DNA from: Chlamydiota bacterium
GTDB lineage: Bacteria > Chlamydiota > Chlamydiia > Chlamydiales > Parachlamydiaceae
Direction: 5' to 3'
Assembly (NCBI GenBank): GCA_013288825.1
Contig: JABDBC010000004.1
Span: 5,649 to 69,648, forward strand
DNA: 64,000 nt
The notes under the pieces were generated by a model, which did not search any database, was not told the origin of the DNA, and was given only the letters and a program-made list of their open reading frames with translations. Below, one piece after another: positions 39,332 through 40,417 of the stretch; the first letter of the stretch is position 1, and every line of letters starts with the position of its first letter. Made by a program: the position numbers and the translations under genes.

Positions 39332-40417
39332 ATGCTTTATAAAATTGGTTTCTGTTGTCTTTTTTGCGTCTCTCTTTTCAGTGTAGAAGATGTTTATCTC
39401 AAAACGCCAAGCATATCACGACAGGATATGATTGGAACCACAGTAGGAATCCGACCTGTCAGAAAGACAGGGGTGCGTCTGGAATCGGAACTGATTCAGA
39501 ATAAACTCATCATCCATAATTACGGCTATGGGGGTTCTGGAATGACTCTTTCCTTTGGCGCTTCAAACGAAGTGCTTAAAATACTTGATAATCAAAAAAC
39601 ATCTTCCAAAATTGTAGCTGTCTTAGGTGCTGGTGTGGTCGGGCTTACCACTGCTTATGATCTTTTGGAAGAAGGTTACGAAGTTCATATTTATTCCGAT
39701 CAATGGAGTCCCAATCTTACATCAAACGTTGCTGCAGGGCTTTGGACTCCCCTTTCTTCTTCCTCAGATATGTCTGAAGAAAAGAAAAAGTTACATCAGC
39801 GGCTTCTAGAAGTTGCTGAGAAGCGCTTTTTAAAAAGTACAGCCAATTATCCCGAATTTGCAGGAGTGAAGCTTATAGCCTATTACAGATTAATGAAAGA
39901 CATTTCTCAAGAGGCATTTAAACCACCAAGTCAGCAAGTGGTTGTGCATTTTGATAATGGATTAATTGAAAGTGCGCGGAGAACTTATAGGCTTGGTATA
40001 GATGGAAAGTTATTTATGGAAGACCTATTTTCTAAAGTAAAAAGCAAAGGGGCAGTGTTAGAGCAAAAGCATTTTGATACTTTAGAGGACATTTTGAATC
40101 TCAAAGAAGATGTGATCGTAAATTGCCTCAGCATGGGATCTCGCGAACTTTTTAATGATCAAGAGTTGATTCCTGTGAGGGGTCAAATGATCTATTTTAA
40201 GCCTCAAGATGGGATAGACTATGTACTTTCTCAAGCTGTTCCTCTTTCTCCAAGTGTTCCTGATGATCCAGATAATTGGGTCGCTATATACCCTTGGAGT
40301 GATCGCATCATTCTAGGTGGACTCAATGAATATGGCGAAGAAGAGCTTGTAATTAGCCCAGAAGCTATCGATAGGATTATTGGAAATGCCGAGAAATGCT
40401 TGTCTGGGAATTTATAA
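39332..40417 (+). CDS. FAD-dependent D-amino-acid-oxidase-like oxidoreductase, apparently circularly permuted
   Basis: GIRPVRKTGVRLE..IIHNYGYGGSGMTLSFGAS is normally the DAAO C-terminus. Here it precedes the Rossmann KIVAVLGAGVVGLTTAYDL. The mid motifs IPVRGQMIYF and RIILGG follow. Confidence 0.85.
   Translation: MLYKIGFCCLFCVSLFSVEDVYLKTPSISRQDMIGTTVGIRPVRKTGVRLESELIQNKLIIHNYGYGGSGMTLSFGASNEVLKILDNQKTSSKIVAVLGAGVVGLTTAYDLLEEGYEVHIYSDQWSPNLTSNVAAGLWTPLSSSSDMSEEKKKLHQRLLEVAEKRFLKSTANYPEFAGVKLIAYYRLMKDISQEAFKPPSQQVVVHFDNGLIESARRTYRLGIDGKLFMEDLFSKVKSKGAVLEQKHFDTLEDILNLKEDVIVNCLSMGSRELFNDQELIPVRGQMIYFKPQDGIDYVLSQAVPLSPSVPDDPDNWVAIYPWSDRIILGGLNEYGEEELVISPEAIDRIIGNAEKCLSGNL

Follow-up and report, generated by a model that had tools for sequence, protein, structure and literature searches.

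A circularly permuted flavoprotein of the D-amino-acid oxidase family in a chlamydial genome and its conserved bacterial relatives

Can a flavoenzyme of the D-amino-acid oxidase (DAAO) family persist with its polypeptide chain in rotated order? The question is raised by a gene at positions 39332 to 40417 of a 64-kb stretch of contig JABDBC010000004.1 (assembly GCA_013288825.1) from a Chlamydiota bacterium; we refer to the whole stretch as the window and to the gene product as the window protein. DAAO is a heavily studied flavoenzyme, of interest as a model of mechanism and also for biocatalysis and as a drug target. Natural circular permutants are known in other protein families; they share one fold with a rotated order, their termini lie in a surface loop and the old termini are joined by a short linker. 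A reading made from the sequence alone, before any database search, had proposed that the window protein is such a permutant of a DAAO-family enzyme, preceded by a hydrophobic leader. Our analysis leaves us almost certain that the permutation is real and conserved.

The window protein matched the Pfam DAO profile (PF01266) with 87.6 bits, against a gathering threshold of 27.9 (E = 1.5e-24). The match was in two stretches, and the best of them aligned residues 95-357 with profile positions 2-297 of 353. A phmmer search against all Protein Data Bank (PDB) sequences ranked DAAO and D-aspartate oxidase (DDO) at the top (E ~1e-20), each as two rotated pieces. In human DAAO (2du8), residues 3-205 aligned with window protein residues 95-289 (independent E-value 6.9e-11) and residues 268-331 with window protein residues 26-86 (independent E-value 8.2e-6), which establishes homology between the N-terminal segment and the DAO C-terminus. 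The HNYG motif at residue 62 comes before the GxGxxG motif at residue 99, the reverse of the canonical linear order. We also un-permuted the protein in silico. The chain was cut between residues 86 and 87, the 19-residue leader was removed, and the pieces were rejoined as 87-361 followed by 20-86. The un-permuted sequence matched Pfam DAO in a single stretch, at positions 2-347 of 353, with 96.9 bits versus 87.6 for the native sequence in its two pieces. It also aligned in one stretch, end to end, with residues 3-329 of human DAAO and 14-333 of human DDO. Searching with a canonical verrucomicrobial relative by tblastn placed its residues 256-303 at nucleotides 39443-39583 (62.5% identity) and its residues 2-244 at nucleotides 39605-40402. 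The rotated match to DAAO is far beyond chance expectation. The split, rotated Pfam match that the sequence-only reading had looked to was thus obtained, and the two pieces become a single match once the sequence is un-permuted, confirming a circular permutation of a DAAO-family flavoenzyme.

The gene can be divided into the following parts.

39332..40417 (+), stop codon included: whole gene, ATG start, encoding the 361-residue circularly permuted DAAO-family flavoprotein (open reading frame listing; Pfam DAO, E = 1.5e-24)
39332..39385 (+): residues 1-18, hydrophobic leader, predicted to act as a Sec-type signal peptide or as a signal anchor (conservation in 20 homologues; AlphaFold2 model)
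39386..39418 (+): residues 19-29 (EDVYLKTPSIS), new N-terminus of the mature core, a short strand and a motif (conservation; AlphaFold2 strand 19-23)
39407..39589 (+): residues 26-86, ancestral C-terminal unit, now first, three strands and a helix (phmmer match to human DAAO 268-331)
39452-39454 (+): codon of R41, equivalent to human DAAO R283, in GIRPVR (residues 39-44)
39515-39535 (+): HNYGYGG (residues 62-68), with G68 equivalent to human DAAO G313; T72, just beyond, is equivalent to T317
39590..39610 (+): residues 87-93 (NQKTSSK), short variable linker that now bridges the two ancestral termini (little conservation in the columns that separate the helix from beta-1)
39611..39697 (+): residues 94-122, Rossmann beta-alpha-beta FAD-binding unit, normally at the extreme N-terminus (aligns with the DAO profile from position 2 and with human DAAO from residue 3)
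39626-39643 (+): GAGVVG (residues 99-104) within the Rossmann unit
39698..40414 (+): residues 123-361, remaining FAD-binding and substrate/interface domains (single-stretch alignment of the un-permuted sequence with human DAAO 3-329)

All the peptides quoted in the sequence-only reading were found in the 361-residue open reading frame: the leader MLYKIGFCCLFCVSLF is residues 1-16, KIVAVLGAGVVG is 93-104, NVAAGLW is 132-138, IPVRGQMIYF is 280-289 and RIILGG is 325-330. The long last part, residues 123-361, contains TSNVAAGLW, HFDNG, NCLSMGS, PVRGQ and YPWSDRIILGG, and its last helix (343-358) is the counterpart of human DAAO up to L266. At the other end of the chain, P26 is equivalent to human DAAO P268, and E19, L23 and P26 are invariant in an alignment of 20 homologues. 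Human DAAO lacks an equivalent of the DVYLK strand, which is an insertion at the artificial junction when the un-permuted sequence is aligned to the human enzyme. Relatives lacking a leader begin within a few residues of the equivalent of the EDVYLKTPSIS motif. The spacing from HNYG to GxGxxG across the family is 24 to 48 residues, mostly 34-42.

The best sequence matches of the window protein are the mammalian DAAO (human 2DU8, pig 1KIF) and human DDO (6RKF), with E ~1e-20 to 1e-21. It shares with them GxGxxG, (T/S)xxVAAGLW, GxRPxR with its carboxylate-binding arginine, and HNYGxGGxGxT. Unlike them, it is rotated: its new termini lie in the L266/P268 loop, and a linker of ~7 residues spans the old ones. 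It also has the extra N-terminal DVYLK strand and the hydrophobic leader, and lacks Y224 and Y228; the identity is ~22-26%. The nearest non-permuted relatives are canonical short bacterial DAAO-like proteins (P0224, P0225, P0247, P0258, P0260, P0262 and P0266, and those at loci L031-L039 described below). They carry the same motif set at 25-40% identity, and their HNYG segment is up to 62.5% identical to the window protein. Their GxGxxG lies at residues 6-11 and their HNYG at ~275-310; they are leaderless and 300-337 residues long, and they are not cleanly resolved from the permuted clade in trees. The window protein is a descendant of DAAO/DDO-type oxidases that differs from them in linear order and in the lid tyrosines.

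An AlphaFold2 model made from the 20-sequence alignment agrees with this assignment (pLDDT 83.8, pTM 0.81). The order of its secondary structures is the DAAO order, rotated. The modelled chain starts with the leader helix (2-16) and a short strand (19-23), followed by the ancestral C-terminal unit with strands 33-44, 49-55 and 58-64 and helix 70-88. The Rossmann unit (strand 94-98, helix 102-113 and strand 117-122) comes next, and the remaining fold runs to the final helix. In a Foldseek search of the PDB, the first 33 places were all DDO or DAAO, led by human DDO and DAAO with E ~1e-13. One result of this search counts against a complete DAAO fold: the alignment covers only ~284 columns, with a TM-score of ~0.57. 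Such partial coverage is expected, because Foldseek is a sequential aligner and follows the longer piece only. The model suggests a DAAO-like three-dimensional fold in which the old termini are bridged. Among the PDB sequence matches, there was no solved structure of a permuted member.

The rotated order is shared by a large family. Searching 5.8 billion clustered proteins yielded at least 120 full-length homologues (345-412 residues, 50-72% identity, ~100% coverage), plus an identical protein (P0001) that is in public collections and also on an independent Logan contig. The named homologues are from metagenome-assembled genomes (MAGs) of Chlamydiales or Parachlamydiales and are labelled 'FAD-dependent oxidoreductase' or 'D-amino-acid oxidase'. 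The alignment of 20 sequences keeps the leader, GIRPxR, HNYGYGG, GAGVxG, TSNVAAGxW, HxDNG, RGQ and the C-terminal helix in one order. Scanning the GTDB species genomes gave 39 loci. Thirty of these (L001-L030) are collinear with the window protein, and the permuted motif order was read directly in 28; the exceptions are a broken open reading frame (L015) and one shortened by the ATG-only start used in extraction (L026). Their sources are Chlamydiota including Rhabdochlamydia, two Babeliaceae, two 'Gammaproteobacteria' MAGs, one 'Verrucomicrobia' MAG and one Vicinamibacteraceae MAG at 28% identity. The other nine (L031-L039), from Verrucomicrobiota, encode canonical proteins of ~300 residues; the motif order was read directly in seven, L032 and L037 being shortened by the ATG-only start call. 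At L015, from an uncultured Chlamydiae MAG, the permuted oxidase is split into open reading frames 5905-6447 and 6667-7083 (180 and 138 residues), probably by a frameshift, as a pseudogene or through an assembly error.

HMMER was also run exhaustively over 1.84 billion representatives at 50% identity and returned 3894 matches at E<=1e-3 and 154 at E<=1e-30. By motif order, at least 116 of the best 150 are permuted and seven are canonical; the others, fragments or proteins with variant motifs, are for the most part collinear with the query. Permuted members span several phyla, with identity down to ~28%, and reach Chlamydiota, Dependentiae, Legionellales-like Gammaproteobacteria, Acidobacteriota and others. 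A cultured Legionellales-like bacterium, Aquicella siphonis, has one (P0296). The survey of the permuted form that the sequence-only reading had suggested thus places it in several phyla and in at least 116 clusters at 50% identity.

The position of the cut bears on how often the permutation arose. Of 119 permuted representatives, 116 have their native C-terminus in one loop, at a point that follows L266 of human DAAO, and the conserved proline near the N-terminus is equivalent to P268. Because this cut site is so widely shared, a single ancestral permutation event is the most parsimonious explanation of these sequences. We also built neighbor-joining trees from 119 un-permuted family members and 15 canonical sequences. 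The permuted clade is monophyletic in the tree from BLOSUM62 distances. Other results speak against a single event by duplication: Kimura distances did not recover monophyly, permuted and canonical sequences separated cleanly in 15 of 50 bootstraps, mean distances were ~1.5, and no DAO-DAO tandem protein was found, the three members of ~600 residues all being fused to other domains. Because the distances are saturated, we gave the shared cut site more weight than the trees. The sequence-only reading had proposed an origin by tandem duplication and trimming of both ends. This, or a fusion with later trimming, is the standard model for circular permutation, and the permutation may have arisen once in this way.

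Possible traces of a duplication were sought in several places. No adjacent second DAO copy was found by tblastn in 44 loci. The double-length P0121, P0214 and P0263 were considered as duplication intermediates and rejected, since they are fused to Peptidase_M15_4 or methyltransferase domains instead. The two ends may overlap by 6-8 residues, since C-terminal CLSGNL and N-terminal YLKTPS each resemble human DAAO RLEPTL, but this is too short to be taken as a duplication footprint. P0214 (616 residues) and P0263 (607 residues) are themselves divergent permuted members with a C-terminal S-adenosylmethionine-methyltransferase-like domain and a degenerate GxRPxR; P0214 also has no recognisable HNYG motif. 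Their pairing of DAO and methyltransferase domains recalls MnmC.

The residues needed for binding of flavin adenine dinucleotide (FAD) and for catalysis are well kept in the permuted family. GxGxxG and HxYG are conserved in 100% of members, and the Ser/Thr of TSxVAAG in 96%. The equivalent of R283, the clamp for the substrate alpha-carboxylate (R41 in the window protein), is arginine in 116 of 119 permuted representatives (97%), and the equivalent of G313 is kept in 97%. The loop HNYGHGGxGxT at residues 307-317 of human DAAO corresponds to HNYGYGGSGMT at residues 62-72 of the window protein, and H311 in this loop is replaced by tyrosine (Y66) in the chlamydial clade. The top 17 PDB sequence matches are all DAAO or DDO, and glycine oxidase, MnmC and GlpD score far lower. 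NCBIfam contains no specific curated family for the window protein; all of its matches there are far below the cutoffs.

These data show how the chain is arranged and suggest how the protein may work. The chain begins in the loop between human DAAO L266 and P268, with the ancestral C-terminal unit first. This unit carries the carboxylate clamp R41 together with the HNYGxGG loop, whose contacts are with FAD and with the amino group of the substrate. Some 7 residues of linker lead on to the ancestral N-terminal Rossmann unit with GxGxxG, and the chain ends after the helix that precedes the ancestral L266. The substrate would be oxidised to an imino or keto acid while FAD is reduced. Conservation of the motifs supports FAD binding, and the window protein is probably a functional flavoenzyme; FAD-dependent oxidation of an alpha-amino acid is its likely activity.

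A hydrophobic leader precedes the rotated core. In the window protein it has the n-region MLYK and the h-region IGFCCLFCVSLF, with a 12-residue hydrophobic run (5-16), followed by S-V-E ahead of the core; cleavage is possible near LFS|VE. In 20 homologues, S14 of the leader is invariant and L10 and F16 are nearly so. We classed the leaders of the 119 permuted representatives from sequence features as resembling signals of the twin-arginine translocation (Tat) or Sec pathway. Tat-like leaders are present in 37 of them (e.g. MNRRAILKGLL and MKRRNFLKSS...FSGC), 16 with a lipobox cysteine, and Sec-like leaders in another 37, four with a lipobox. Thirty have no leader and start at a conserved h-x-L-x-x-P-x-L-S motif, and 15 are unclear. 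An export-type leader is thus found in ~62% of the permuted family, but is absent from the canonical relatives. The Vicinamibacteraceae member starts MDRRTLLHTGSMAVFGLSLSGCSA, and locus L028 has a twin-arginine motif. The sequence-only reading had placed the leader outside the permuted unit, and its status as an added element is borne out by relatives with a Tat-like leader, a Sec-like leader or none ahead of the same core.

Guided by this leader, the protein would cross the inner membrane and act in the periplasm or at the membrane surface; the route would be of the Sec type for the window protein and of the Tat type for many relatives. A periplasmic or lipoprotein location is well supported by the predicted leaders for much of the family, because Tat export suits a cofactor-loaded flavoprotein. 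For the window protein itself, export is somewhat favoured by the form of its leader. Two points weigh against it: the protein has no twin-arginine motif of the S/T-R-R-x-F-L-K type, and a Sec-exported protein would need to acquire its FAD outside the cytoplasm. Sec-exported periplasmic flavocytochromes that depend on an FAD exporter are a precedent for such extracytoplasmic loading. Taken as a whole, the window protein is intact, probably functional and perhaps exported: an amino-acid oxidase or dehydrogenase that would use FAD and that belongs, with its permuted chain, to the DAAO/DDO branch of the DAO superfamily.

Other explanations of the locus have to be weighed against this one. A rotated order is also what a recent fusion between two tandem gene fragments is expected to look like. 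The gene might then be a non-functional chimera or pseudogene of two DAAO fragments, or an assembly artefact, and a 73-nt direct repeat that flanks the oxidase gene and its helix-turn-helix (HTH) neighbour hints at local rearrangement. The homologues decide against this: more than 120 full-length proteins at 50-72% identity keep the order and the length, and the order is permuted in 20 of 20 aligned sequences, 28 of 30 loci and at least 116 of the best 150 representatives. Members in several phyla keep the FAD and catalytic motifs down to ~28% identity, a divergence that excludes copies of one contaminating sequence. In addition, the same protein is on the independent Logan contig, the reading frame is intact and the AlphaFold2 model is confident. 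The chimera or pseudogene was rejected on the conservation among homologues, and we consider it, like an artefact, extremely improbable. The sequence-only reading had thought a functional permuted fold plausible; motifs kept family-wide, the intact reading frame and the confident model indicate that the fold is probably functional rather than broken. A different doubt concerns the substrate. In the window protein, the lid and pocket residues Tyr224 and Tyr228 of human DAAO are replaced by D314 and A318. The Y228 column is tyrosine in 68 of 119 family members (57%) and the Y224 column is not conserved, the loop alignment being uncertain; Y320 of the window protein lies two residues beyond the Y228 column. 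With Y224 and Y228 replaced, the sequence does not reveal which substrate the enzyme prefers. A D-amino acid, such as D-Ala derived from peptidoglycan, is our tentative proposal, held with some reserve. P0121 (587 residues, on a 3.7-kb ENA contig) joins a permuted oxidase, 48% identical to the window protein, to a C-terminal Peptidase_M15_4 domain, a D-Ala-D-Ala carboxypeptidase domain (residues 507-582, E = 2.3e-25), and genes of PF00144, the DD-peptidase/beta-lactamase superfamily, are near the oxidase in 4 of 31 loci. The fusion and these neighbours are weak clues that point to peptidoglycan D-alanine. The loss of the lid tyrosines counts against this proposal, as do three further observations: the M15 fusion is a singleton in the database, on a short contig; the PF00144 neighbours are convergent, not operonic; and all-against-all clustering of open reading frames within 6 kb in the 31 loci gave no conserved partner gene.

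A permuted enzyme of the DAO superfamily could instead act on glycine, sarcosine, an opine or another amine or amino-acid derivative. The unconserved lid residues in the chlamydial clade, a weak match to TIGR02352 (ThiO) and the lack of an informative operon would fit such a substrate, and GxRPxR and YGHGGxG are also present in some glycine oxidases (PMC9844085). The best sequence and fold matches are nevertheless DAAO and DDO, with glycine oxidases at a Foldseek E ~1e-7 versus 1e-13. The carboxylate-binding arginine is 97% conserved, the Y228 equivalent is tyrosine in 57% of members, and one member is fused to the M15 carboxypeptidase domain; we regard a substrate other than a D-amino acid as somewhat unlikely. 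The leader, too, can be read in another way, as an uncleaved membrane anchor. The protein would then be a membrane dehydrogenase that feeds electrons to quinone or cytochrome as DadA does, and not a soluble oxidase producing hydrogen peroxide. The chlamydial leader is unusually well conserved (S14 invariant, L10 and F16 nearly so), many relatives are predicted lipoproteins and hence tethered to the membrane, and there are weak partial NCBIfam matches to D-amino acid dehydrogenase models; sequence cannot separate an oxidase from a dehydrogenase. On the other hand, the closest solved relatives by sequence and fold are oxidases (DAAO and DDO), not DadA-type enzymes, 30 representatives have no leader at all, and a plausible signal-peptidase site (L-F-S/G, then x-E) follows the h-region. 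An anchored dehydrogenase appears unlikely to us.

The surroundings of the gene vary. Across the 31 loci, the only recurrent neighbours are PF00144 proteins (4 loci) and short-chain dehydrogenases/reductases (4 loci), and the neighbourhoods of one Tat-type member and of Aquicella are likewise uninformative. At L020, the permuted oxidase converges with a PF00144 gene (7106-8290, minus strand) that starts 8 nt beyond its downstream end. At L017, the PF00144 gene (2393-4462, minus strand) is 88 nt downstream, also convergent, and encodes GNAT and glyoxalase domains as well. Upstream of the oxidase in the window are a histidine-phosphatase-superfamily protein with a hydrophobic N-terminus (36722-37696, plus strand) and a 466-residue DUF7790 protein (37684-39084, minus strand), neither of which is kept beside the oxidase in other genomes. 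Directly downstream are two small HTH_3 (XRE-type) proteins (40396-40869, plus strand, and 40967-41197, minus strand). The first, in its listed form, shares 22 nt with the end of the oxidase gene, although gene callers start it later (L040, 2365-2796); the N-terminal half of its product resembles a HicB-like antitoxin by eye.

The two copies of the 73-nt direct repeat (93% identity) are at 38045-38117, inside the DUF7790 gene, and at 40884-40956, downstream of the first HTH gene; their starts are 2839 nt apart and they bracket the oxidase and that neighbour. A short open reading frame at the second copy (40748-40939, minus strand) starts with the DUF7790 peptide ATDEAFRH(I/V)KSLAMTDRI. The repeat pair may be what is left of a second DUF7790 paralogue, or else a scar of recombination. 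Further downstream, a 480-residue open reading frame (41783-43225, plus strand) contains only a PEP-utilizers mobile domain and a PEP-utilizers_C domain. Its product looks like a pyruvate phosphate dikinase or phosphoenolpyruvate synthase without the N-terminal nucleotide-binding domain, and given the upstream open reading frame 41196-41780, the gene could be split or truncated. The 64-kb window has a GC content of 35-44% and contains no tRNA gene and no Rfam family at the gathering threshold.

How does the family relate to the bacterial DAAOs already described? Characterised enzymes include those from Rubrobacter xylanophilus, Streptomyces coelicolor and Arthrobacter protophormiae, all Actinobacteria, and GxRPxR and YGHGGxG are reported as signatures of bacterial DAAOs (PMC9844085). 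The permuted family has both signature motifs. About ten bacterial DAAO genes were known in this 2022 survey, all from one group, printed 'Acinetobacteria', which we take as Actinobacteria (PMC9844085). In contrast, the permuted family occurs in several phyla, mostly with export-type leaders, and the survey mentions no permuted or exported form. No description of a permuted or exported DAAO or DAO protein was found in the searchable full-text literature. Circular permutation itself is well known; what appears to be new is a permuted family of the DAAO type. Annotation pipelines name its members 'FAD-dependent oxidoreductase' or 'D-amino-acid oxidase', and the topology goes unflagged.

Our results point to a large and diverse bacterial family, with at least 116 clusters at 50% identity, in which the DAAO catalytic core is carried by a rotated chain. 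If this is true, the family would be a natural test of how far the two-domain GR2 flavoprotein fold tolerates moved termini, which would be useful for the engineering of split or sensor DAAOs. It would also be a new source of candidate D-amino-acid oxidases. A wider proposal, which we offer as speculation and consider quite unlikely as a whole, is that the permuted clade comprises unrecognised, widespread periplasmic or lipoprotein D-amino-acid oxidases acting on D-amino acids released from peptidoglycan, such as D-Ala from DD-carboxypeptidases. Moving the termini to the L266/P268 loop would have enabled the use of export signals and the loading of FAD and folding away from the N-terminal Rossmann start. 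In environmental chlamydiae and amoeba-associated bacteria, the enzyme would be Sec-exported and would have spread by horizontal transfer. Should the identification of the family hold, it would hint at D-amino-acid oxidation outside the cytoplasm in some bacteria, including environmental chlamydiae.

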